The notes beneath the pieces are model-generated. The model saw only the letters and a list, made by a program, of their open reading frames with translations, made no database searches and was not told the origin of the DNA. Both the position numbers and the translations under genes were made by a program. Of a stretch of DNA of 26,602 bases, positions 9,414 through 26,084 are shown one piece after another. Numbering within the stretch: the first letter of the stretch is position 1; each line of letters opens with the position of its first letter. Origin of the DNA: a virus (lineage: Duplodnaviria; Caudoviricetes); the IMG/VR virus record IMGVR_UViG_3300032227_001068, positions 1 through 26,602 of that record; one strand, given 5' to 3'.

Positions 9414-9592
9414 GCCATTTTTGCGCTAAAAACGGGGGGGAGGGTCGGATTTGAGCGATAGGCGAGGTAGGACCAATGTTGGGACCGCGTTGCACGCGGC
9501 TAACAATCCCACGAATGACCCTAAAACGGCCCTAGGATGCTTCAGGATCGATCCGAACCGCGAAAACGGTATCAGATACGGACGAAAACGCA
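9414..9592. promoter_or_regulatory. Probable cos/packaging initiation region
   Basis: Non-coding gap between HNH and terS, G-run GGGGGGGAGGGTC, four AAAACG direct repeats. Confidence 0.55.
9418..9440 (-). repeat. Copy 2 of the 23-bp inverted repeat (partner 31-53)
   Basis: TTTTTGCGCTAAAAACGGGGGGG. Confidence 0.85.
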
Positions 9593-11657: not shown

Positions 11658-13417
11658 TCGACATCCTTCGCAGGTACTTGGGGCCACAGCCGCCGCGCAG
11701 CGAGTACGAAGACAACACACCCATTGGGCAACCTGTTTCGGGTGCGGTGCAGTCCTATGTGTCTTCCTATTCGTTCACCGGGTCGAACATCAACCCGCTC
11801 ACCGCGATGGAATCGCCGAGCGTGTACGCGTGCGTTCGCCTGATCGCGTCGAGCATTGCGAAGCTTGAGTGGCAGATTCTGCGCGAGACTCCGGAAGGCA
11901 AGGTGGTTGAACCTAACCACCCGCTGGCGAACCTGCTGAATGTGGAGCCGAATGAGGACACCAGCGCGCTGGTGTTCCGTGAAACGCTTCTCACTAATGC
12001 GCTGCTGACCGGCAACGGCTACGCGTACATCCAGCGCGATGCATCCGGTTTGCCTGTTTCGCTTGAACTGCTGCGCCCGGACAATGTGCAGATGATGCGC
12101 GACGGTGCGAACCAGCCCTACATCCAGGTTTACACGGGCAACTACACCGGCAAGGATGCAGAGAAAAAGGCACGCCGCTTCCGCCCCTACGATGTGTTTC
12201 ACCTGTGCGGCGCATCATTTGAGGGGCTGCTGGGCATCGCTCCGATCCACCTGATGCGCGAAACCATCGGGCTGGAACTGATCGTGCAGGAGTTCGTTAC
12301 CAAGTACTGGGCCAACAATGCCGTGCCTTCGGGCACGCTGTCCCTGCCCGGCAAACTGTCCCCCGAGGCATCGCAGCGGCTGCGCGAAGCCTGGCAGAAG
12401 GCCCACAACGCTCGCAACGCGGGCCGCGTGGCGGTGCTTGAGGATGGAATGTCGTACCAGCCGATGGCATCGACGATGAAGGATGCCGATTTGGTAGCCA
12501 TCCGCGAGTTCTGCCGCCAGCAGATCGCGGCGGCGTTCGGCGTTCCCGCGGCGCGCATTGGCTCCACCGAGGCGCAGAGTTACGCGAGCGCCGAGAGCGG
12601 TGATGCCCACCTAGTGAAGCACACCCTTTCAAGCTGGGCCACGCGCCTTGAGCAAGAGGCCAGCCGCAAACTGATCGTGCGAGGCGCGCCATATTGCACA
12701 CGGATTTCATTTGATTCGATGCTCCGCGCAGAGATGGCGGTGCGGTTCAGCGCCTACAACACGGCGATCATGTCCGGGCTGATGAGCCCGAACGAATGCC
12801 GCGCGCGGGAAGGTTTGCCAGCGGTTGCAGGCGGCGAGTCCATCCGCCTGCCGCTCAACACGGCCGCGCCGGAGCCCGCCGCCGGTGGCGTGCCCCCGGC
12901 CGAGCCTGTGTCCTCGCCAGCCGAGGAAGTGCCCGCGAGCGTTGACCTAGCACCCGATGAAGTGCCCAATAGCGTGGATGTTGATCCGGCCGAAGACGAG
13001 GCGGGAGACAACGCGAAAAAGTTGATCGCCATCCGCGCCGCGGTGGATGCGGTGCGCCCCGCCATCGAAAACGCGTATGGCCGCCACCTGCACCGGGTTT
13101 CCGAATACCTGTTGAAGACGCGCACCCAGGCGAAGCTGGATAAGTGGGCACCGCCCATCGATTGCATCGCTGGTGACCTGCGAGACACCATCACCGGGCT
13201 GGGCCGCATCATGGGCGATGAGGGCAAGGCATCCGATGTGCTGAACGCGGCGTTGCTGCGCCACGCTCGCCACCTGCGCGGCGCTGTCGGGAAAATCGCG
13301 GCGCTGTCGGACACGGTTGATGGCTGGAAGCCGCTGCCGAATGTGGCCACCACCGAACTGCTCGAGATGCTCGAGCATGAAATCTTGCAAACGCCACTAC
13401 TGGAGGGAAAGCCATGA
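11648..13417 (+). CDS. HK97-family portal protein with C-terminal extension
   Basis: VYACVRLIASSIA, LLTGNGY, IAAAFGVP, MSPNECRAREGLP; about 180 extra residues. Confidence 0.93.
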   Translation: MALIDILRRYLGPQPPRSEYEDNTPIGQPVSGAVQSYVSSYSFTGSNINPLTAMESPSVYACVRLIASSIAKLEWQILRETPEGKVVEPNHPLANLLNVEPNEDTSALVFRETLLTNALLTGNGYAYIQRDASGLPVSLELLRPDNVQMMRDGANQPYIQVYTGNYTGKDAEKKARRFRPYDVFHLCGASFEGLLGIAPIHLMRETIGLELIVQEFVTKYWANNAVPSGTLSLPGKLSPEASQRLREAWQKAHNARNAGRVAVLEDGMSYQPMASTMKDADLVAIREFCRQQIAAAFGVPAARIGSTEAQSYASAESGDAHLVKHTLSSWATRLEQEASRKLIVRGAPYCTRISFDSMLRAEMAVRFSAYNTAIMSGLMSPNECRAREGLPAVAGGESIRLPLNTAAPEPAAGGVPPAEPVSSPAEEVPASVDLAPDEVPNSVDVDPAEDEAGDNAKKLIAIRAAVDAVRPAIENAYGRHLHRVSEYLLKTRTQAKLDKWAPPIDCIAGDLRDTITGLGRIMGDEGKASDVLNAALLRHARHLRGAVGKIAALSDTVDGWKPLPNVATTELLEMLEHEILQTPLLEGKP

Positions 13418-13932
13418 CCGAAACACGCGCTAGCGGTACCGTCAAACCTTCAACAGATTTGAAGATTCGTGGCTATGCGGTGACATGGGAGCCGTACACG
13501 ATGGGCCCCGATTCATGGGAGCGCATCGACCGATCCGCATTCGATGCGGCGCTGGAGTCCCCCGAGGATGTGGCTTTGCTTTGGAACCATGACACCAGCA
13601 AGCCGATGGCCCGCGTGCGCGCGGGGAACCTGCGAATCTTCACCGACGAGGTGGGGCTTGGTTTTGAGGCCACGCTTCCTGACACGGCCGTGAGCCGTGA
13701 CGCGGTTTCCCTGATCCGTTCCGGCGTGGTGAGCCAATGCAGTTTCGGGTTCCATGTGCGCGGCGAGCGGTACGAAAAGGCACCCGATGGGAAGCCGCTG
13801 CGCGTCATCACCGACGCGAACTTGGTGGAAATTAGCGCGGTAACATTCCCTGCGAACCCTTCCACCAGCGTGGAGGCGCGCAACGCACAGCCCACCGCGC
13901 GCAAGCGTTACTACCTGCCACCCGAGATGTAA
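13414..13932 (+). CDS. HK97-family prohead protease
   Basis: GYA, LLWNHD, SFGF, LVEISAVTFPANPST. Confidence 0.93.
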   Translation: MTETRASGTVKPSTDLKIRGYAVTWEPYTMGPDSWERIDRSAFDAALESPEDVALLWNHDTSKPMARVRAGNLRIFTDEVGLGFEATLPDTAVSRDAVSLIRSGVVSQCSFGFHVRGERYEKAPDGKPLRVITDANLVEISAVTFPANPSTSVEARNAQPTARKRYYLPPEM

Positions 13933-13936
13933 TCGG

Positions 13937-13964
13937 TTGCAATTCACCTGCGCGCCCTGATAAT
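13937..13964 (+). promoter_or_regulatory. Putative sigma70-type promoter
   Basis: TTGCAA (13937-13942), 16 nt spacer, GATAAT (13959-13964); the -10 lies in the loop of GCGCCC/GGGCGC. Confidence 0.5.
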
Positions 13965-14116: not shown

Positions 14117-15133
14117 ATGGGCGAAACCAAGATCACGCGCGACTCCGATCAATACAGCGATATCTACCGCACCTTCCTGCGCCGCGGCGCGCGCGGGCTC
14201 ACCGATGTGGAGGCGCGCGCGCTGACGATCAGCAGCGGCGGCACCGCGCTGGCCCCGACCGCCTGGTCGAAGTACATCGATACGGAGATCGCCGAAGACG
14301 CAATCCTGTCGCGCGTTCAGAAGATCGAAACCCCCACCGCTTTCAATCTTCCGATCTACGCCGAGGATGCGACGGTGAACACCAATGTGGCCGAGTCCGC
14401 ATTGGGTACCCAGTCTTCCCCCACCTTCGCCAAGCCTGTGCAGGGCAGCACCTCCGGCACCAGCGGCACCTACTACACCTTCGCGCAGAAGAAGGTAACC
14501 GCGTGGGTAAAGGTTTCCAACGAACTGCTGAACGATTCGAAGGGCGCGCAGGATGTGGAAGAGTTCCTGCGCCGCGCGCTGGTCGATGGGCTGATCGGCG
14601 AGGTGGGCCGCCAAATCCTGATCGGAAACGGCACCAGCGAATGCCAGGGCAGTTTCAACAGCGCGAAGGGTTACAGCCGCACGGCATCCACCGGCGTGGC
14701 CACCACCAACACCATGAAAGATGTGATTTCCGCGGTGTGGGGTTCTACCGCTAGCGCCCTGTCCCCGCTTCCGTATGAATCGTGGATCAACAGCGTAGCC
14801 GTGATCAACAGCCGGTTGATGGCATCGTTCGATCCAACTTTTTTCCCGGTGCTGTTCCCAAGCTTCCGCGGAACGATGGTCAATGGAACCACGGTTGAAG
14901 GCTTGCCCACCGTCTACCACCGCTTGAGCACAGGTACCCCGGCCACCGGTGACACGCTGGTGCATTTCTTCAACCCTGCGCAATACCTGCTGGCCCATTC
15001 GTTCGGCGCGTTCAGCGTCGCGCGGTACAGCGAAGCGGCAGCCGATACGAACGAAACCATTTTCGTGGCTTCGATCCGTTGCGATGGATCGATCACCAAC
15101 AAGTTTGCTGTTCTGAATGTCAACCGCGCCTAG
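14117..15133 (+). CDS. HK97-fold major capsid protein paralogue 1 (short propeptide)
   Basis: KKVTAWVKVSNELLNDS...ILIGNGTSECQG, VEGLP, RCDG motifs typical of HK97 MCP. Confidence 0.85.
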   Translation: MGETKITRDSDQYSDIYRTFLRRGARGLTDVEARALTISSGGTALAPTAWSKYIDTEIAEDAILSRVQKIETPTAFNLPIYAEDATVNTNVAESALGTQSSPTFAKPVQGSTSGTSGTYYTFAQKKVTAWVKVSNELLNDSKGAQDVEEFLRRALVDGLIGEVGRQILIGNGTSECQGSFNSAKGYSRTASTGVATTNTMKDVISAVWGSTASALSPLPYESWINSVAVINSRLMASFDPTFFPVLFPSFRGTMVNGTTVEGLPTVYHRLSTGTPATGDTLVHFFNPAQYLLAHSFGAFSVARYSEAAADTNETIFVASIRCDGSITNKFAVLNVNRA

Positions 15134-15151
15134 TGCGCGTTTCAAATCTTT

Positions 15152-15214
15152 GGGCATTCGCACACCGCCGCGAATGTCCCTGCGGGCCGCGTTGGCCCGA
15201 GCGACACGCGGCGG
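15152..15214 (+). promoter_or_regulatory. Structured leader of capsid gene 2 (possible pseudoknot)
   Basis: 10-bp stem 15152-15161/15170-15179; loop CCGCC complementary to GGCGG 15210-15214; GGGCC/GGCCC hairpin between. Confidence 0.45.
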
Positions 15215-15236
15215 GAATCTAGGAAGGAAACCGAGT

Positions 15237-16526
15237 ATGCCAGTCCCCAGTTCATACAAGGCGCTCATCGAGAAGATGGGTGCGCTCTATCAGGAAATGC
15301 AGTCGATGGTTGATGGTGCCAATGCCAACGGCGAGGGCATGGCCCCCGAGATGGAGGCGAAGTACACCGCCCTGAAGACCCAGTACGCCAACCTGCGAAA
15401 GCAGCGTGAGCGCAACGAAGAGGTGATGGCGATGGATAACGGCCAGCAGGCCGTGTTTAGCGACATCCCCGCCGCCCCCGAGGTTCGCAGCGCCCAGCGC
15501 GCCGAGCGCGCCGCGAAGGTTGGCGAGCGCCGCGAAACCGACGAGTACCGCGACGCGTTCCACAACTACCTCCGCAACGGCGAACACACCGCACCCGCGG
15601 AGCTTCGCGCGCTGACCGAGGCCAGCGGTGGCACCGTGATTCCTCCCACCGAGTTCGACAACCAGCTCGTGGCCAAGCTTCAGACCATGACGAGCGTTCG
15701 CAACCTGGCGCGCAAGCTCTCGCTGGGTTCGTTCGCGCGCGAAGTGGCTTTCGAAAACGCCACGGGTGCCGCGTACTGGGTTGGTGAGTCCACCGCCCCC
15801 ACCGAGGCTGCGCCCACCTTCTCCAAGATCACGCTTACCCCGAAGCGCCTTTCGGCCCTTCTGCGCGTGTCGAACGAACTGGTGGCCGATGCCGATGCCC
15901 GCGGCGGCAACATGTCGATTTCTTCCATCGTCACCGAGCAGATGGCGCGCGTGTTCGCACAGACCGAGGAAACGGCGCTGCTGGCCGCTTCCAATGTTTC
16001 CGGCGCTCCTGTTTCGCTGCTGAATGATGCTTCCCTCACCAGCACCAATACCGGCTCTTTCACGGCGTTCACGGCGGAGAAGGTGATCGACTGGATTTAC
16101 AGCCTGCCCCGCCAGTACCGCCAGCACCCCAGCTGCGCGATCATCGTGAACGATTCCACCTTGGGTTACCTCCGCAAGCTGGGCGGCGTTACTGGTTCCA
16201 CCAATGTCACCAACTACTTTTGGGAGAACGGCTACACCAAGGGCGGCAGCGGCCAGGCTCCGGAGCCGGATCGCATCCTCGGAATCCCGGTGTACACCAG
16301 CGCGGCCATTTCGGCGCTTCCGACGAGCGGCACCACCGCTACCAAAATCGGCATCATCGGCGCGTGGGACTACTGCTACTTCGGCACCACGGGCAACTAC
16401 GAACTGAAGGTTCTGCGCGAGCGTTACGCGGACACGAATGAGACGGGCTACATCGCAAACATGCGTATGGATTGCCAGCTCTCGCTCCCCGCCCTGGCGT
16501 TCAAGGCTTTCAACGCCAGCACCTGA
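15237..16526 (+). CDS. HK97-fold major capsid protein paralogue 2 (full delta/scaffold domain)
   Basis: AGGAAGG RBS; coiled-coil N-terminus; AYWVGE, ITLTPKRLSALLRVSNELVAD, RILGIPV. Confidence 0.93.
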   Translation: MPVPSSYKALIEKMGALYQEMQSMVDGANANGEGMAPEMEAKYTALKTQYANLRKQRERNEEVMAMDNGQQAVFSDIPAAPEVRSAQRAERAAKVGERRETDEYRDAFHNYLRNGEHTAPAELRALTEASGGTVIPPTEFDNQLVAKLQTMTSVRNLARKLSLGSFAREVAFENATGAAYWVGESTAPTEAAPTFSKITLTPKRLSALLRVSNELVADADARGGNMSISSIVTEQMARVFAQTEETALLAASNVSGAPVSLLNDASLTSTNTGSFTAFTAEKVIDWIYSLPRQYRQHPSCAIIVNDSTLGYLRKLGGVTGSTNVTNYFWENGYTKGGSGQAPEPDRILGIPVYTSAAISALPTSGTTATKIGIIGAWDYCYFGTTGNYELKVLRERYADTNETGYIANMRMDCQLSLPALAFKAFNAST

Positions 16527-16546: not shown

Positions 16547-16574
16547 CCGGCGGGGGCCGAAAGGCCCTCGCCGG
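16547..16574 (+). terminator. Strong hairpin after capsid gene 2
   Basis: CCGGCGGGGGCC-GAAA-GGCCCTCGCCGG followed by ATTTCCTT. Confidence 0.65.
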
Positions 16575-16585
16575 ATTTCCTTACC

Positions 16586-16777
16586 ATGACAATGGTTCAA
16601 GTTCAATTCCTCAAAGCCGTGGCCAGCGCAAAGGGCGTTTGGGGGCCGGGCGAGGTGGCTACGGTCGATCCGGATACCGCGCAGCAATGGTGCGTGGCAG
16701 GCATTGCGGAACGCGTCCACGCGGTTCCTGCTGCGCCTAGCGAGGCACCAAAGCAGAAAGGCCAGGGCAAGCGATGA
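16586..16777 (+). CDS. Small head-associated protein
   Basis: MTMVQVQFLKAV...GPGEVATVD...GIAE, typical of small genes directly following HK97 MCPs. Confidence 0.65.
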   Translation: MTMVQVQFLKAVASAKGVWGPGEVATVDPDTAQQWCVAGIAERVHAVPAAPSEAPKQKGQGKR

Positions 16778-17988
16778 AGGGCAATGCGTTTGTTCCGTTC
16801 ATGCTGCGGCGCGGCGATGGCTCCACGCTGTCGCTTGATTTCACCGCGATGGGTGACACGCTTGATAGTCGCTTCACCTTCACGCGTAGCAGCACCACTA
16901 GCACCTACATCAACTCCAGCGGGCTAGTTGCAACTGCTGGAACGAATGTCCCACGCTTCAACTATGACCCGACCACGCTAACCCACCGCGGGTTGCTCAT
17001 TGAAGGTACTGCAACAAACCTGGTAACCAATTCGCAGAACATCACAACAGGTACTTGGACCGTCGGTGGAAACACTACCTTGACTGCGAATACTACCGAA
17101 GTTACTGACCCTGCGGGTGGAAACACCGCAACCAAAATTGCGCTCTCCGCGGGTGCGTATTGTTCTAGAGCGCAACTGGTGACGGTTCTTGCAAATACCG
17201 CTTACACATTCTCATTTTGGATTCGCGGCACAGCAGGATCAACACAGCGAATTTTCGAGTTTGGCGGTGGTGACTTGGTTTCGCAAACAACTCTCACTTA
17301 CACGAATACTGGCTGGACGCGGGTACAGGTTCAATTTACATCGGCAACAATTACCACGATATTTGTGTATGTGTGCAGCAAAAGCACAAGTGCTGGTTCT
17401 AGTGATGTTCTTTATGCGTGGGGCGCCCAACTGGAATTAGGTTCCGGTGCATCGTCTTACATCCCAACTGTCGGAAGCACCGTGCAGCGCACAGCAGATA
17501 CCTGCATCGCATCCAGCACCGGGTTTTCTTCATGGTTCACCGGCGGCACAAGCGGAACGTTTTACGCTGATTGGTTTGGCGGCGTGCGAAACATCACTAG
17601 CACGGTTCGCACCGTTCTTTCCACTTCCGATGTAACCGGCCGCCATCTGCACCTTCAGCAAACCGCTGCCGCTGGAAACCTAAAGGTTGCAGATTTCGGG
17701 GCCGCCAATTCGGTGACCACATCCAACAGCATCACAAGCGGAGCGCGCACCAAGGGTGCGTTTTCGTTCAGCGGAAGCACCGTGAATCTGACCCTGAATG
17801 GTGGCACGGTTGCGACATCTTCAAGCCTCGCGTTTTCAACCGCGCCCACATGGCTGGTGCTGGGTGGAACTTCAACCGATGGCAGCACCAACACGGATGC
17901 CACGGTGCTACTGAATGGATCAATCCGGGCCATCAAGTATTGGCCAAGCGTCCTGCCAACCGCAACCCTTCAGAGCCTCACCACATGA
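16774..17988 (+). CDS. Head fibre/spike-like protein with carbohydrate-binding/LamG-like domains
   Basis: FTFTRSS...PRFNYDP...GLLIEGTATNL, WGAQLE, SSYIPT; Thr/Ser-rich beta protein between head and neck genes. Confidence 0.65.
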   Translation: MKGNAFVPFMLRRGDGSTLSLDFTAMGDTLDSRFTFTRSSTTSTYINSSGLVATAGTNVPRFNYDPTTLTHRGLLIEGTATNLVTNSQNITTGTWTVGGNTTLTANTTEVTDPAGGNTATKIALSAGAYCSRAQLVTVLANTAYTFSFWIRGTAGSTQRIFEFGGGDLVSQTTLTYTNTGWTRVQVQFTSATITTIFVYVCSKSTSAGSSDVLYAWGAQLELGSGASSYIPTVGSTVQRTADTCIASSTGFSSWFTGGTSGTFYADWFGGVRNITSTVRTVLSTSDVTGRHLHLQQTAAAGNLKVADFGAANSVTTSNSITSGARTKGAFSFSGSTVNLTLNGGTVATSSSLAFSTAPTWLVLGGTSTDGSTNTDATVLLNGSIRAIKYWPSVLPTATLQSLTT

Positions 17989-18278
17989 CCGATTACTACC
18001 TGCGATCCAACACCGAAACGCAGATGGCCGAGGCTTTCGATGCCATCGGCGTTACGGTTCAACGCATCGATGGCGAGTGCCACAGCCTGGACGGGCAGCG
18101 CATCGACATTGGATGGATTGGCCCCGTTACATGGATCGATGCAGCCACGGGGCAACCGCAAACTGATAGCCGCTTTCATGCGAACTTGCGCGTGGCCGGT
18201 GAACTGACCGAGGCCCAAGCCGCGGAGCTTCCGATCCTTGACCCTGCACCATCTACCCCCATGAGGGTTTGGGCGTGA
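17985..18278 (+). CDS. Hypothetical protein, likely fibre partner
   Basis: MTDYYLR...FHANLR...PSTPMRVWA; ATGA coupling. Confidence 0.7.
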   Translation: MTDYYLRSNTETQMAEAFDAIGVTVQRIDGECHSLDGQRIDIGWIGPVTWIDAATGQPQTDSRFHANLRVAGELTEAQAAELPILDPAPSTPMRVWA

Positions 18279-21025: not shown

Positions 21026-21339
21026 GTGAGCGACCGCTTCGGCGCTTCCTGTTCCAACTGGCACTAGCGTTAGGGAAGACGGTCGCGGAACTAGAGGAAA
21101 CCATGTCGAGTCGCGAACTAACCGAATGGATCGCCTACAACGCAGTCCAGCCTTTCGGTGATACGCGCGCCGATTTGCGTTCCGCGATCATCGCCAGCAC
21201 CGTGGCGAACTGCCACCGCACTAGCGGCACGCCATTCAAGGTGGCGGATTTCATGCCCTACGAAGAAAAGCCCAAGGGCGCGCCGCTGGATGCGGTGAAG
21301 CAGTTGCGCGCCATGTTTGGAGGAAAGCGCAATGGGTAA
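21022..21339 (+). CDS. Tail assembly chaperone -1 frame extension (gpT-like)
   Basis: LALALGKTVAEL...MSSRELTEW...PFG; -1 frame relative to upstream ORF. Confidence 0.85.
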   Translation: MSERPLRRFLFQLALALGKTVAELEETMSSRELTEWIAYNAVQPFGDTRADLRSAIIASTVANCHRTSGTPFKVADFMPYEEKPKGAPLDAVKQLRAMFGGKRNG

Positions 21340-22522
21340 TGTCGCAGCGTTCAAAACACGTATCACGCTTGAATCCGATCAGTACATCGCCGGTTGGAAG
21401 AAGGTGGAATCCGCTACCACGAACAAGGTGAGCGGTATCGAAGCGGCCATTTCCAAGGGCATGAAGTCTTGGAGTAATTCGATGGGGAAAGCGATCAGCG
21501 GGTTTCTTGGAATCCAACTTGCTGACACGCTGCTGAAGTCCATCGATGAAACACTCAAGAATCCAATCTTCAACAATTCCGGCGCGAACATTGCCTACGC
21601 CATTGGCGATGGATTCGCCAAGACACTTGAAAGCATCCCGGTTGCTGGCACCCTAGGCAAGTGGATTGGGCAGGGTTTGGGATCGGCCACCGATGCCATC
21701 GGGTTGACCAGCGACGCAAGCGGGAATCAGGAAGCGCGGCAGCAAGCAAGCCGAGAGGAAGCCGCGCGAAATGAGCGGATGCTTGCCGTGGGTTCCAAAA
21801 TGGCGGCCGATTTGGAGAAGCAGCGCGAACTAGCCGAAGCGGTAAGCGACGAACAGCGCACCCGCGTGGAGCGAGCGCAGCGCCTGGCGGAACTTGAAAA
21901 GCAATTGAACGATCAGATGACGAAGGAAGGCGCGAAGGGGCCGGAGATCGTCGCAGCCCGCGACAAGCTGCGCGCGGCATTTGAGGCCACGAGCGCGGCG
22001 CAGGATGAAGCCCTCAAGCGCCAAGAGCGTGAGAAGATGCTTGCCGATCAAGCGGCAGAGGCAGAGAAGGAACGCGCACGCGTTGCAGAAGAGGCCGCGA
22101 AGGCGCAAGAGCGCGCCCAGGCTGATGCGGAGAAGCGCGCGGAAATGCGCGCCGCCGCAGAGGAGCGCCGAGAGGAATCCGTGATGAACTTCATGGATGA
22201 TTTGCAGGACGCGCTAGACGAGCGCACGATGACCGAAGATCAGTTGTTTCAGAAGAAGATGGATCGGTTGGGTCTTGACGCGCAGGAGCAAGAGAGTGCG
22301 CGCGCGCTGAATGAGAAACTGAAGGCGGCCGAAGCCGGTGCATCCAAGACCACCGCGGTATCCAACATCGAAAGCATCCAAAGCGCCGTGGGCAGCGTGA
22401 AAATGGCTGGCACCACGAGCGGGCTAGATAAACTGGCGAAGCCCGCAGAGGCCACCGCCAAGGCCACGGAGGCCAGCGCAACGCACCTGGCGAAACTCGC
22501 AGCAGCAACGGGAGCCGTGTAA
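21332..22522 (+). CDS. Short tape measure protein
   Basis: GGAGG RBS; Ala/Glu-rich helical protein following chaperones; 396 aa. Confidence 0.8.
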   Translation: MGNVAAFKTRITLESDQYIAGWKKVESATTNKVSGIEAAISKGMKSWSNSMGKAISGFLGIQLADTLLKSIDETLKNPIFNNSGANIAYAIGDGFAKTLESIPVAGTLGKWIGQGLGSATDAIGLTSDASGNQEARQQASREEAARNERMLAVGSKMAADLEKQRELAEAVSDEQRTRVERAQRLAELEKQLNDQMTKEGAKGPEIVAARDKLRAAFEATSAAQDEALKRQEREKMLADQAAEAEKERARVAEEAAKAQERAQADAEKRAEMRAAAEERREESVMNFMDDLQDALDERTMTEDQLFQKKMDRLGLDAQEQESARALNEKLKAAEAGASKTTAVSNIESIQSAVGSVKMAGTTSGLDKLAKPAEATAKATEASATHLAKLAAATGAV

Positions 22523-23428
22523 ATGCCTGTGATCATCAACATTGCCCAGCGCGCCGGTGGAACTACCATCAACTTTGAGCGCGGCAAGTGGAGCGGCAGC
22601 GCGCAATATGTGATCACCGAGGCGGCCGCGCAGGCGCTTACGGCCAGCGACATCCTCGGCAGCGCCACCGTAATTGCGAAACTGTTCCCAACCGAGTACG
22701 GCGGCGCTGGCGGCGCAATCACCGATCAAGGCTCATTCTTCTCGGGCCGCGTGACGCAGCCAAGCTTCTCGCTGGCAATGGTTGATGATGGCGGATATGT
22801 GTGGCAGGCCACCGTTACTTTCGACTCACAGACCGCGGACAATGGCACCACCACCACGGATAACAAGGTGGAGCGCGAGGTTGGATTTACCGCCATCGAA
22901 TACAGCTTGAGCGGCGAGGGCGTGGATGTGTGGCGGGTTGGCGCAACCGCACCCGCGAACAAGTCCATGCCAGCCGATACCGACATCAGCGGCACCAAGG
23001 TTGATAGCGGCGGCGAGCCAATTACCTTTTTCAACAATGTTGCCAAGGTGACCGTTCGCAATGTGGTTGCCGGGCGCCCCACGCCGCCGGTTGGCTTCAT
23101 CAACAACCGGAACAGCGCCAGCTTTACGATTGGCCCCTACTCATTCCCGGCGGACACGCTGCTGTTCACGGGTTGCAGCATCACGCGTGTGGGCCCTGCA
23201 ACCTATGAAATCGTTTATTCATTCGTTTATGACAACGGCTACCACCTGCGGCAGATCGCCAAGCGCGGCCCCGATGGGCAGGTGATCAAGGGAAAGAAAA
23301 CCGATTCCTGCGGCAGCGCGCCAACCACCGTTCCCGATGGCGAGATGAGCAACGCGCTATGCGTGTTCTTCCGGCAGCCGTTCCCAACCACGAGCGCCTT
23401 TAGCGGCATCGGCATAACGGGCATCTGA
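22523..23428 (+). CDS. Tail tip/distal tail-like protein
   Basis: Beta-rich protein immediately after TMP; synteny. Confidence 0.55.
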   Translation: MPVIINIAQRAGGTTINFERGKWSGSAQYVITEAAAQALTASDILGSATVIAKLFPTEYGGAGGAITDQGSFFSGRVTQPSFSLAMVDDGGYVWQATVTFDSQTADNGTTTTDNKVEREVGFTAIEYSLSGEGVDVWRVGATAPANKSMPADTDISGTKVDSGGEPITFFNNVAKVTVRNVVAGRPTPPVGFINNRNSASFTIGPYSFPADTLLFTGCSITRVGPATYEIVYSFVYDNGYHLRQIAKRGPDGQVIKGKKTDSCGSAPTTVPDGEMSNALCVFFRQPFPTTSAFSGIGITGI

Positions 23429-23955
23429 TGTTTGTGAACGGTGTCACCCGCGGGAATGTTGGCCCTTGGTCACCGAACCAAGTGCGCACCATTGCGGACA
23501 CTATCAACCGCATAAACGGCGAGGGGCAGCGCGGGCCCAAGTCCGCACCGCCGCCGGTTGTGGTGTTCATGGCGCGCATTACTGGCAGCACGGCCATTGC
23601 GGGTAAAACCGCGACCATCGGCGGAACCGCCGCGCAGCCAGTCGCGTGGGAATACGATTGGGAAGAGGTGAGCGTGTCCACCACGGGCACCTACAACACC
23701 AGCGATACCTATCGCCGGAAGTCTTCCCTGATCGCCACCAAGGGGAAGGCCATCAATGGGTGCGAAGGCCCGCAGATGATCGGCGCTACCACCACGCTTG
23801 GCCCTGGCATTACCACTTCCAACATCCCTGCCGGGTTCAGTTTCAAGGCCATCGCCAACAACACCGTGGTGATGATGTACGCCACCGCGCGCGCGACGGG
23901 CGAGAACCTGTTTTTCTTCAGCGTGCCGAACGCGGTGGATGGAGCCTGCGCGTGA
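23428..23955 (+). CDS. Putative tail tip protein
   Basis: TGATG coupling; Thr/Gly-rich; ends DGACA. Confidence 0.55.
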   Translation: MFVNGVTRGNVGPWSPNQVRTIADTINRINGEGQRGPKSAPPPVVVFMARITGSTAIAGKTATIGGTAAQPVAWEYDWEEVSVSTTGTYNTSDTYRRKSSLIATKGKAINGCEGPQMIGATTTLGPGITTSNIPAGFSFKAIANNTVVMMYATARATGENLFFFSVPNAVDGACA

Positions 23956-24242
23956 GCCCCGTTCCCTCCATCGGCCCCCGCCACCAGCAGCCCACCACGC
24001 TTGGAACGGTGATCAGCGTGGTGCAACTGGTGGTGCTGGTGGTTGGCGTGGGCGGCATCTTCCAAACGATGGGCCGCAAGGATGCCATCTTGGAGCGCCA
24101 AGACCGCGACCTGACTGAGCTTCGCGCCATCGTGGGCGATTTGGTCAAAGCCCAAGTGCTGGGCGCTGCGAACGATTCCAAGCATGGGGAAACCCTCACC
24201 AGCATCGCGGTGCGCCTTGACCGGCTAGAGGGCCGCCGGTGA
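23952..24242 (+). CDS. Single-TM coiled-coil membrane protein (holin-like)
   Basis: VISVVQLVVLVVGVGGIF followed by heptads ending RLDRLEGRR; GTGA overlaps. Confidence 0.6.
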   Translation: MSPVPSIGPRHQQPTTLGTVISVVQLVVLVVGVGGIFQTMGRKDAILERQDRDLTELRAIVGDLVKAQVLGAANDSKHGETLTSIAVRLDRLEGRR

Positions 24243-24784
24243 TCCGCTGTTTGGTCTTCCTGCTGCTGATCGCCTGCGCCGCGTGCAGCCCTAGCCGGGC
24301 CATTGCGGTTTCGGCTACCGAGGCTGGTGAGCGCGCCGGAACCATCGCCAGGCTGGCAACGCACATCGGGAGCGTGTCTACTCAAACCGAGGTGGTGGCC
24401 GATGCGGCCGCCATCGTGGTTGAAGCCCAGCACATCGAAGCGGCCGCCGGAGCCATCCACAAGGCGCTACCGGGCGTGGAGGATCAGACCCCATGGTGGG
24501 CGGTGCTACTTGGTTACATCGCAGCAGCGGCCGCCCTTGTGGCCGTGGCGGCCATCCTGTGGCAGACGGGAATAGGCGCAGCCATCCGCGTGGCGCTGGG
24601 TTGGATTCCGCGGCCGAGCCTGCGCGATGCGGCCCTCGCCCGCGATGTGATGGAAACTTCCAACCCCGCGACGATCCGGGAATACATTGCAGCAAAGCGC
24701 GCAAGCGATCCCGTGTGGGAAGCCGCTTGGAAGCGCACCGAGGAACCCAAGCCATGTACTACATCGCATCCGCTGAATCCCTGA
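24239..24784 (+). CDS. Lipoprotein with internal TM helix (candidate unimolecular spanin)
   Basis: MIRCLVFLLLIACAA-C-SPS signal; TM WWAVLLGYIAAAAALVAVAAILW. Confidence 0.6.
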   Translation: MIRCLVFLLLIACAACSPSRAIAVSATEAGERAGTIARLATHIGSVSTQTEVVADAAAIVVEAQHIEAAAGAIHKALPGVEDQTPWWAVLLGYIAAAAALVAVAAILWQTGIGAAIRVALGWIPRPSLRDAALARDVMETSNPATIREYIAAKRASDPVWEAAWKRTEEPKPCTTSHPLNP

Positions 24785-24891
24785 TCGGTTCGACCTGGGC
24801 CGCCTTCGCTTGCCTTGCCATCGGCTACATCGCGGGGCACCTTGTTCCGCTGGGCACCATCGCGGGATGGATTCGCGGCACCAAGGGCTAA
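24754..24891 (+). CDS. 45-aa membrane peptide
   Basis: GAGGA RBS; MYYIASAESLIGSTWAAFACLAIGYIAGHLVPLGTIAGWIRGTKG. Confidence 0.6.
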   Translation: MYYIASAESLIGSTWAAFACLAIGYIAGHLVPLGTIAGWIRGTKG

Positions 24892-24894
24892 CCC

Positions 24895-25569
24895 GTGAGC
24901 ATGATGCAGGCGGGCTGCTGCTGCGGGTGTTCTTGCCCGAGCGGGACCACATTGCCTAGTAGCGTTTCGCTCACCATCACCGTGACCGGGTGCCAGGGCA
25001 CCACCGCTATAGTGACATGCGTTCTTCTACTGAACGCAAGCGCACCGTGCGTTGTTGGTGTATGCCTGTGCCAAAAGTATTCATTTACGGCCAACCTAAA
25101 CACAGCTGGCGGGTGCAGCGGCAACTACGCGTGCAACATGCCATACGACTATTTCGACACCTGCCAAAACGGAACGCCTGACCCTGGGCAAGCATTGATA
25201 GGCATTGCAAAGGCTGCAATCGGAACAAACGGGATCGGATTTGATTCCGAGGAGTACCCCGCTTGTGATGTGTGGTTTTTGCGCTTGACGCTGGAACTAA
25301 AGATGGGGCTTACCGACCCAACAGCTCAATCCGCCGGTGATGTTTGTGGAGATTGCCATTGGCACTATCCAGCATTCCCATGCGTTGCGCCAGCATCCCA
25401 AACCTTTGACATGGGATTTTGGAAGGCTACTGGTACAGACCCGCGAGGCACTTATGTGTCCGCTGTTGGTAGCCCAATTCCTGATTCCTGCTGGGTAGAT
25501 GTTCCACCGCCATGCGAACCGTGCGAAGGCTCTTGGGGCATGACCATAAACGATATCACCATCGCATGA
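24895..25569 (+). CDS. Cysteine-rich protein (20 Cys, CCCGCSC N-terminus)
   Basis: Direct translation; visibly lower-GC body. Confidence 0.7.
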   Translation: MSMMQAGCCCGCSCPSGTTLPSSVSLTITVTGCQGTTAIVTCVLLLNASAPCVVGVCLCQKYSFTANLNTAGGCSGNYACNMPYDYFDTCQNGTPDPGQALIGIAKAAIGTNGIGFDSEEYPACDVWFLRLTLELKMGLTDPTAQSAGDVCGDCHWHYPAFPCVAPASQTFDMGFWKATGTDPRGTYVSAVGSPIPDSCWVDVPPPCEPCEGSWGMTINDITIA

Positions 25570-26084
25570 TTGAGTGCGACCATTGGAGCGAGTGCGGCGT
25601 GAGCGGCGGCGGCTGCTGCGCTGCTAACCACTACGGCGGCCGCCCCAGCGCGGGCGTGTGCAAGCAATGCCCGCACCGCGTGGTCAAGGGCGAGCGGCCG
25701 ATGGGCATCGGTGAAACAATCAACTACGGTTTCGCATCGCGCGCCGCGGCCTATCTAGCTGCGGAGCGCAGGCACGCCACCCAAGGCCCCGCCAGCGTCC
25801 AAGTGCAGGGTGAGCGCGCGGCCATTTGCCGAGCGTGCGAAGGCCGCGCCGAGGTGGTGGAGGGCGCTACCGATCCCGGCGGCATCGGTTGGTGTACCAA
25901 GTGCGGGTGCGGTTCCAACCGCCGCGCGGCGCTATCGGTGAAGTTGACCCTTGCCGGGGCAACCTGCCCGCTGGGCAAGTGGCAGCCCGTAGAGGGCACA
26001 GGCGCAAGCCTGGGCACCGTGGCCGAGGCCATCACCGGCGTGGCCAGCAGCGTGGTGGATACAGCCAAGCGGCTGCTGGGCTAG
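25566..26084 (+). CDS. Cysteine-rich protein (12 Cys; RxxICxxC...CxxCGC...CPLGKW)
   Basis: ATGA coupling; metal-binding-like Cys pattern reminiscent of DUF6171-type proteins. Confidence 0.7.
   Translation: MIECDHWSECGVSGGGCCAANHYGGRPSAGVCKQCPHRVVKGERPMGIGETINYGFASRAAAYLAAERRHATQGPASVQVQGERAAICRACEGRAEVVEGATDPGGIGWCTKCGCGSNRRAALSVKLTLAGATCPLGKWQPVEGTGASLGTVAEAITGVASSVVDTAKRLLG

Follow-up and report, generated by a model that had tools for sequence, protein, structure and literature searches.

Why would a very small siphovirus carry two HK97-type capsid genes side by side? The question is raised by the IMG/VR virus record IMGVR_UViG_3300032227_001068 (Duplodnaviria; Caudoviricetes), whose 26,602 bases, with an estimated completeness of 99%, are the whole stretch of DNA analysed here and are called the window. 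Besides a head module of HK97 type and a lambda-like tail module, it contains genes for integrase, recombination and primase. Two adjacent genes of the head module are the subject of this work. C2 (15237..16526, 429 aa) encodes a canonical HK97-type major capsid protein (MCP), likely that of the hexons, and C1 (14117..15133, 338 aa) a delta-less HK97-fold capsid paralogue, likely the penton or vertex protein. Both lie on the plus strand, as do all other head-module features given below. We consider it probable that C1 forms the 11 five-fold pentons and C2 the hexons, and that in fibre-bearing members of the family the axial domain of C1 docks the head fibre directly. The first-pass annotation of this stretch started from the premise that small siphoviruses use one MCP. 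Published exceptions are Nocturne116 and Jabs, with other c2-like phages by prediction (PMC13595954; here and below, published systems are described from the available portions of the cited sources).

Both open reading frames (ORFs) are intact, and both proteins pass PF05065 (C1 63 bits, C2 132 bits, cut-off 24.2) and TIGR01554 (69 and 205 bits, cut-off 27.5) and match phrog_10. C1 aligns with C2 end to end in BLASTP (E 6e-10, 21% identity across 350 columns), and the two family profiles match each other with 99.6% probability over 299 columns. The earlier description of two intact HK97-type genes, alignable along their length, is borne out. The motifs quoted for it are all present, though VSNEL and E..A..N.T are generic to HK97-type MCPs by profile consensus. 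The C2 start is ATG 15237, behind AGGAAGGA; the upstream ATG 15117 chosen by the ORF lister was rejected. The AlphaFold2 model of C2 has long N-terminal helices (7-30 and 37-67) and clearly matches HK97-fold capsids, best that of the Rhodobacter capsulatus gene transfer agent, RcGTA (6TB9, E 7.5e-19). The model of C1 is of low confidence (predicted local distance difference test, pLDDT, 51.5). Its best PDB match is HK97 1OHG (E 5e-4), and its top matches are all HK97-fold capsids, at a template-modelling score of ~0.3 from this weak model. The structural check proposed in the first pass is clear for C2 and equivocal for C1.

A full delta (scaffold) domain of 124 aa is present in C2 (15237..15608) and not in C1. 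As first described, C1 keeps a 34-aa stub (14117..14218) that matches the end of the C2 delta domain and ends at the putative cleavage residue Arg34. The stub is the best-predicted part of the C1 model (helices 11-23 and 30-36) and measures 33-36 aa in 87 of 88 full-length C1 proteins. The motif E-x-R-[ASVT]-[LI] is found at R33-36 in the same proportion of C1 (87/88), with its equivalent in 90 of 91 full-length C2. The common maturation site claimed earlier therefore holds as a motif, and cleavage at the conserved Arg is what we infer for both proteins because homologues are cut after Arg or Lys (Nocturne116 R242, phi12 CP R128, Ccm K87). A cut after R34 in C1 and R124 in C2 would leave mature chains of 304 and 305 aa. 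The candidate enzyme is an HK97-type prohead protease (13414..13932; PF04586, E 1e-40; TIGR01543).

The pair is conserved throughout the family. Three IMG/VR scans gave 126 loci and, with 9 duplicates removed, 118 records including the window; one scan was queried with C2, so that C1-less genomes could have shown up. C1 and C2 are both present in 92 of the 118 records. In each of the 13 C2-only and 13 C1-only records a contig end within 200 bases interrupts the locus. Of the 74 contigs that hold protease and C2, all have C1 between the two, and the order protease-C1-C2 is kept in lineages only ~25% identical (L132-L139, L141-L144). In nine groups dN/dS is 0.09-0.24 for C1 and 0.13-0.27 for C2, which indicates that C1 is under purifying selection, like C2, and rules out a decaying duplicate. 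Absence or decay of C1 in relatives had been named among the findings that would count against a second shell protein; neither is seen, and the proposal of a maintained second shell protein is well supported by these comparisons. Fusion of C1 to C2 by read-through or frameshift was rejected as well: the frame offset varies (33, 18 and 35 of 86), and so does the gap length. Six records (L195-L198, L200 and L243) with one capsid hit each are weak matches outside the family and were left out of the motif test described below. Frameshifts or stops in C2 or portal of L179, L203 and L204 are probably sequencing errors.

A quick tree groups C1 with other short, delta-less capsid proteins, and C2 is not its sister. 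Because of this placement C1 appears to be an old paralogue lineage, and a recent tandem duplication was rejected. More distant delta-less HK97-type proteins of 332-345 aa (P0198, P0200, P0202, P0214, P0234, P0235) group with C1, and the two-gene head may be much wider. No close C1 was found in cultured phages, the best being 27% identical, and an atlas search with C1 returned generic PF05065 clusters only. Orthology to a solved vertex protein was not found either, a C1-only profile matching HK97 gp5 alone and weakly; the likeness of C1 to vertex proteins is one of architecture. A C1 subtype of 416 aa (L060:9992-11239; P0054, P0056, P0058, P0059) carries a 75-aa Gly/Thr-rich two-repeat domain in the predicted E-loop. 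This insert has no family match and no counterpart in the atlas, and is predicted to be a second display site on C1. That C1 is no shell component at all, and serves as an assembly helper or persists as a relic duplicate, is extremely improbable. The low confidence of its fold model would suit such a role. The full-length fold profile, the purifying selection, the universal presence, the E-loop domain of some alleles and an A-domain constraint tied to an external fibre (below) all speak against it.

The position of C1 at pentons, raised in the first pass as one option among several, is the most likely reading and is assigned by analogy, because of four solved two-protein heads and the five-fold site of the fibre's homologue. 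Dedicated vertex proteins are diverged paralogues (~18-24% identity) beside a scaffold-bearing MCP; C1 and C2, at 21%, are adjacent and fall within this range. C1 might instead bind the fibre from a subset of hexons or mixed with C2, and here SPP1 gp12, which binds MCP A-loops at hexons only (PMC6813328), offers a model. Mature C1 is as long as mature C2, whereas in Jabs and Nocturne116 the MCP is larger than the penton protein, and this lack of shrinkage counts for hexon sites and against pentons. We nevertheless find a hexon or mixed location quite unlikely: the paralogue is confined to pentons in the four solved two-protein HK97-fold heads compared here, the solved homologue of the fibre is a five-fold vertex fibre, and 21% identity would make mixed capsomers unlikely.

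The fibre gene follows C2. It encodes a 404-aa head spike fibre (16774..17988), a homologue of RcGTA Rcc01080 (PDB 6TB9 chain match, E 1.4e-9; NF048003 114.6 bits, cut-off 36). It is preceded by a gene for a 63-aa protein with a weak DUF7302 match (16586..16777) and followed by one for a 97-aa protein (17985..18278; phrog_18574, function not assigned) that is found after this fibre type only and is likely a fibre-specific partner. In the family, the stretch from C2 to the adaptor gene is either ~250-270 bases long (no fibre) or 1.3-2.2 kb (fibre cassette). C1 of the window has in its axial (A) domain region (residues 181-292, 14657..14992) a hydrophobic motif, FDPTFFPVLFP (238-248, 14828..14860), a putative fibre-docking site. 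In a first batch, on whose own data the general motif [FWL]D-x(1,2)-[FA][FY]P-x-LFP was defined, motif and fibre cassette agree in all 77 scorable loci, both being present in 52 and both absent from 25; 41 of 118 loci were unscorable, including L018, whose C1 fragment starts after the motif. A second batch of 115 loci, reduced to 61 non-duplicates and 28 scorable ones, is concordant in 28 of 28 (25 neither, 3 both). L179 was scored by hand as its frameshifted C2 had misled the script, and many loci in both counts are near-copies. This covariation is direct comparative evidence for an anchor of the head fibre, which the first-pass annotation had listed as an option for C1.

The state of the fibre follows C1 more closely than any neighbour. 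On FastTree trees of 44-69 rows the fibre state changes once for C1, 3 times for the fibre-adjacent small gene, 4 times for C2 and 9-11 times for portal, protease and adaptor; a quick IQ-TREE tree of C2 likewise forces four changes. Pairs with opposite fibre state and C2 84-92% identical have C1 merely 29-44% identical. In L027/L108 and L029/L075, for instance, opposite in fibre state, terminase, portal, protease and adaptor are 89-99% identical, C2 89-92% and C1 32-44%. These comparisons indicate that C1 comes in exchangeable allelic classes, of which one, with the axial motif, is always accompanied by a fibre gene. Constraint on C1 follows the same division. Among representatives <90% identical to one another, region 181-292 is the best-conserved part of C1 where a fibre is present (15 sequences; identity 0.68 against 0.59 overall) and the least-conserved part where it is absent (12 sequences, 0.34 against 0.55 overall; 4 sequences, 0.47 against 0.65). 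The axial region of C2 (0.51 with fibre vs 0.62 without) stays within the range of other C2 regions. Aligned through C2 and a broader profile, the C1 motif falls on the K-D-x-x-G-R-[FY] hairpin segment of RcGTA and HK97 MCP, a segment that in HK97 lies at the capsomer axis.

The fibre side shows a matching regularity. At least three unrelated fibre bodies, most with their own small downstream gene, stand behind one N-terminal peptide; the bodies are lectin-like, Gly-rich (PF21722) or weakly GDSL-like. In the window this putative docking peptide is MKGNAFVPFMLRR (16774..16812), and most fibre bodies start with its general form, M[KR][GA][NS]-x-x-P-F-M-x-R. All 11 fibre peptides of an AAALLF type are paired with a P-I-L-F-P variant of the C1 motif. 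A third type, MLITWRR, is found in eight fibres, and in all three types hydrophobic residues are followed by basic ones. The fibre cassette (window 16774-18278 and relatives) is hypervariable even where C1 is 95-99% identical, and its GC content is lower in the window (0.53).

Because C1 varies together with the fibre, we infer that C1 binds it directly. The link could instead be indirect, with C1 as the penton and the fibre held by another docking protein (the 63-aa protein, the 97-aa protein or an unrecognised base), or it could reflect linkage or shared host adaptation. RcGTA has a separate base pentamer, and the block of C1, C2, small gene and fibre often moves as one: in L039/L120 and L058/L103 C2 is swapped too (45-62% identical) with flanks mostly 91-100% identical, so that block linkage explains part of the motif-fibre pattern. 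The few independent events across C2 also leave room for this explanation. We regard it as rather unlikely, as the 63-aa gene occurs with and without a fibre, other fibre bodies have a different gene, or none, in place of the 97-aa one (the cassettes of L010 and L012 have no small gene after the fibre), neither protein has an Rcc01079 match in a PDB sequence search, and a constraint specific to the C1 A-domain is not explained by linkage. No Rcc01079-like base protein was matched among the flanking small ORFs, by a sequence search that is insensitive for short proteins and covered some of the ORFs.

How would one operon supply unequal amounts of the two shell proteins? A sigma70-like promoter site (13937..13964) stands directly after the protease stop and likely drives the capsid operon; one such site was found vs 0.6 expected by chance, and similar hexamer pairs lie at the same place in the relatives compared. 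It is followed by the structured 5' leader of C1 (13965..14116), in which folding predicts the C1 ribosome-binding site to be occluded. Of 67 distinct loci, 61 are predicted to need more energy to open the C1 start than the C2 start, the means being 10.6 for C1 and 5.5 kcal/mol for C2. Among ten starts of the window, in a comparison in which the small-gene start was misplaced, the most open are those of C2 (6.6) and tail tube (6.9), and C1 (11.2) resembles portal and fibre. The structure of the leader and its homologues is conserved over ~150-200 nt with a recurring CCTAGTG/CCTGAC hairpin loop. In the leader alignment 5 of 9 consensus pairs have changes on both sides, and a search of the leader from six sources against Rfam gave no match. 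The leader is a candidate cis-regulatory RNA setting the C1:C2 ratio. Some lineages have a C1-C2 gap (window 15134-15236) of ~100 nt in which a long hairpin is predicted, others one of ~25 nt; the hairpin is possibly an RNA processing or stability element. A terminator-like hairpin (16547..16574; 12 pairs, 11 of them GC) follows C2, before the low-copy genes, in a window where the overall number of terminator-like sites is not above chance. In RNA runs (4 of 6 listed), contigs of near relatives cover C1 in part in 2 runs and C2 in part in 4; they can neither rank the genes nor prove transcription and were not used.

A structured leader could also be regulated, and C1 might then act as a size or shape switch that gives alternative capsids, as Ccm redirects phi12 and turns prolate heads isometric. 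The Nocturne116 authors speculate that vertex proteins favour a prolate shape (PMC13595954). A prolate head like that of Nocturne116 is plausible, by analogy, at 26.6 kb. A fixed role of C1 in head shape is compatible with penton position and fibre docking; switching, which the first pass had suggested as a 'switchable' capsid, finds no support and is very unlikely. Every testable genome has C1 in the operon of the phage itself, always together with C2, in one order and after a conserved promoter-like site, and C1/C2 are not flanked by repeats that would point to an invertible element. There is no satellite context: terminase, portal, protease, MCP, connector and tail genes are all in the window, whereas a satellite has no head or tail genes of its own. 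In size, the longest contigs of one C1 class overlap those of the other (~24-28 kb).

Several observations weigh against a C1 penton that docks the fibre and is made in the smaller amount. The role of C1 is drawn here from sequence and comparison, and the C1 model is of low confidence in the A-domain. The second-batch queries were class-specific and its fibre-bearing scorable loci number only 3. Motif-bearing C1 is a single clade with one origin and few independent exchanges; independent pairs on the C2 tree are 3/3 concordant (p 0.25), and where pairs on portal and adaptor trees are significant, function and linkage of the whole block remain confounded. Of the eight fibre genes with the MLITWRR peptide, 7 could be scored, and these are paired with ordinary C1 motifs in spite of their different peptide. 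A base-protein gene could lie undetected elsewhere in the genome. In 6 of the 67 loci the C1 start is more open than the C2 start, and codon bias does not separate the genes (C1 0.66 vs C2 0.69; C2 higher in 51/77).

With these points in mind, assembly with a fibre-docking C1 penton might proceed as follows. A single capsid-operon transcript would yield less C1 than C2, the C1 start being buried in the leader structure. The C2 delta domain would scaffold the prohead, C1 would join via its 34-aa stub, and the prohead protease would trim both after the conserved Arg. Five C1 axial motifs would make a hydrophobic pocket at each vertex, gripping the hydrophobic-basic N-terminal peptide of one fibre in place of the Rcc01079 base pentamer used by RcGTA. 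Swaps among lectin-like, Gly-rich and GDSL-like fibre bodies would change the host surface bound. Fibre-less members would have C1 alleles whose freed axial domain has since diverged. A broader picture, for and against which we see about equal grounds, is that of a modular vertex socket: an exchangeable HK97-fold penton grips interchangeable fibres without an adaptor, or as a fibre-less allele provides a variable vertex surface, and the leader RNA sets the penton:hexon ratio.

The remainder of the window offers a few further observations. A 27-nt inverted copy links positions 27-53 and 9418-9444, and bases 1-53 of the window could be an artefact of assembly. Contigs of many relatives start ~4.6-4.9 kb upstream of C1, near window 9420, which suggests a cos end there. 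In the tail region (21317-26084) the tape-measure candidate is short (401 aa) and tail-tip genes have no family matches; two Cys-rich ORFs lie at 24895-25569 and 25512-26084. Public runs containing the region are mostly freshwater or lake metagenomes. Host labels from three contigs of metagenome-assembled genomes are unrelated to each other and were regarded as binning noise.

A dedicated penton paralogue is already known from cryo-EM, in T4 gp24, Ccm of the Staphylococcus aureus pathogenicity islands (SaPI), Jabs and Nocturne116. The exchangeable allelic classes of C1, one of which goes solely with a fibre gene, are new. In a mostly open-access literature we found neither this family described nor any account of penton-gene alleles being exchanged or of a penton paralogue that docks an Rcc01080-type fibre. 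What a small phage gains from a separate vertex protein is called unclear in the Nocturne116 paper (PMC13595954). The family gives a testable answer: splitting penton from hexon would free the vertex as an exchangeable host-contact module, without any change to hexon or scaffold. Natural pairs of alleles whose neighbouring genes are near-identical provide the material for such a test, and a 13-residue peptide with its pocket would offer a compact site for five-fold display on HK97-type shells.

Among known systems, the head spike of RcGTA is homologous to the window fibre. One Rcc01080 fibre stands on each five-fold vertex, its short hydrophobic N-terminal peptide (residues 2-10) held by the Rcc01079 base pentamer (PMC7296036). 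RcGTA differs in having one MCP and a separate jelly-roll base (PMC7296036), and its fibre peptide differs in sequence from that of the window. SPP1 gp12, seated on the A-loops of gp13, shows that axial loops of an MCP can bind a fibre directly in the middle of a capsomer; it differs in its single MCP, hexon sites and collagen-like trimer (PMC6813328). T4 gp23/gp24 resemble C2/C1 as paralogues ~20% identical, both trimmed by the prohead protease, the N-terminal piece of the vertex protein being short (10 aa). T4 is, however, a large myophage with a separate scaffold, and its Hoc sits at hexon centres, not on gp24 (PMC9958956). SaPIbov5 Ccm is an HK97-fold paralogue of phi12 CP, 24% identical, found in pentamers only; its delta domain is shortened (87 vs 128 aa), and Ccm and CP are both cleaved to the same mature mass (PMC8569155). 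Ccm is satellite-encoded and redirects a helper, whereas C1 is in the phage's own operon. Mycobacteriophage Jabs has siphophage hexon and penton paralogues, MCPh and MCPp, 18% identical, the penton protein being without maturation domain (bioRxiv 10.64898/2026.07.24.740622). It differs in its T=9 disulfide-linked shell, reduced penton A-domain and lack of decoration proteins, as far as the available text describes them. The Lactococcus phage Nocturne116 (25,554 bp, PMC8306868) is likewise a small cos-type siphophage of similar genome size with adjacent HK97-fold paralogues (~24% identical), MCP ORF18 and vertex protein (VP) ORF19, in a prolate head (Tend 4, Tmid 8; PMC13595954). Its scaffold-less paralogue forms 11 pentamers and its MCP is cut after Arg. 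VP comes after the MCP, is 54 aa shorter and lacks a delta stub; the available portion of that paper does not mention a head fibre (PMC13595954). C1, unlike VP, comes first and is full-size; its stub looks cleavable, its alleles are exchanged, and it varies together with a fibre.

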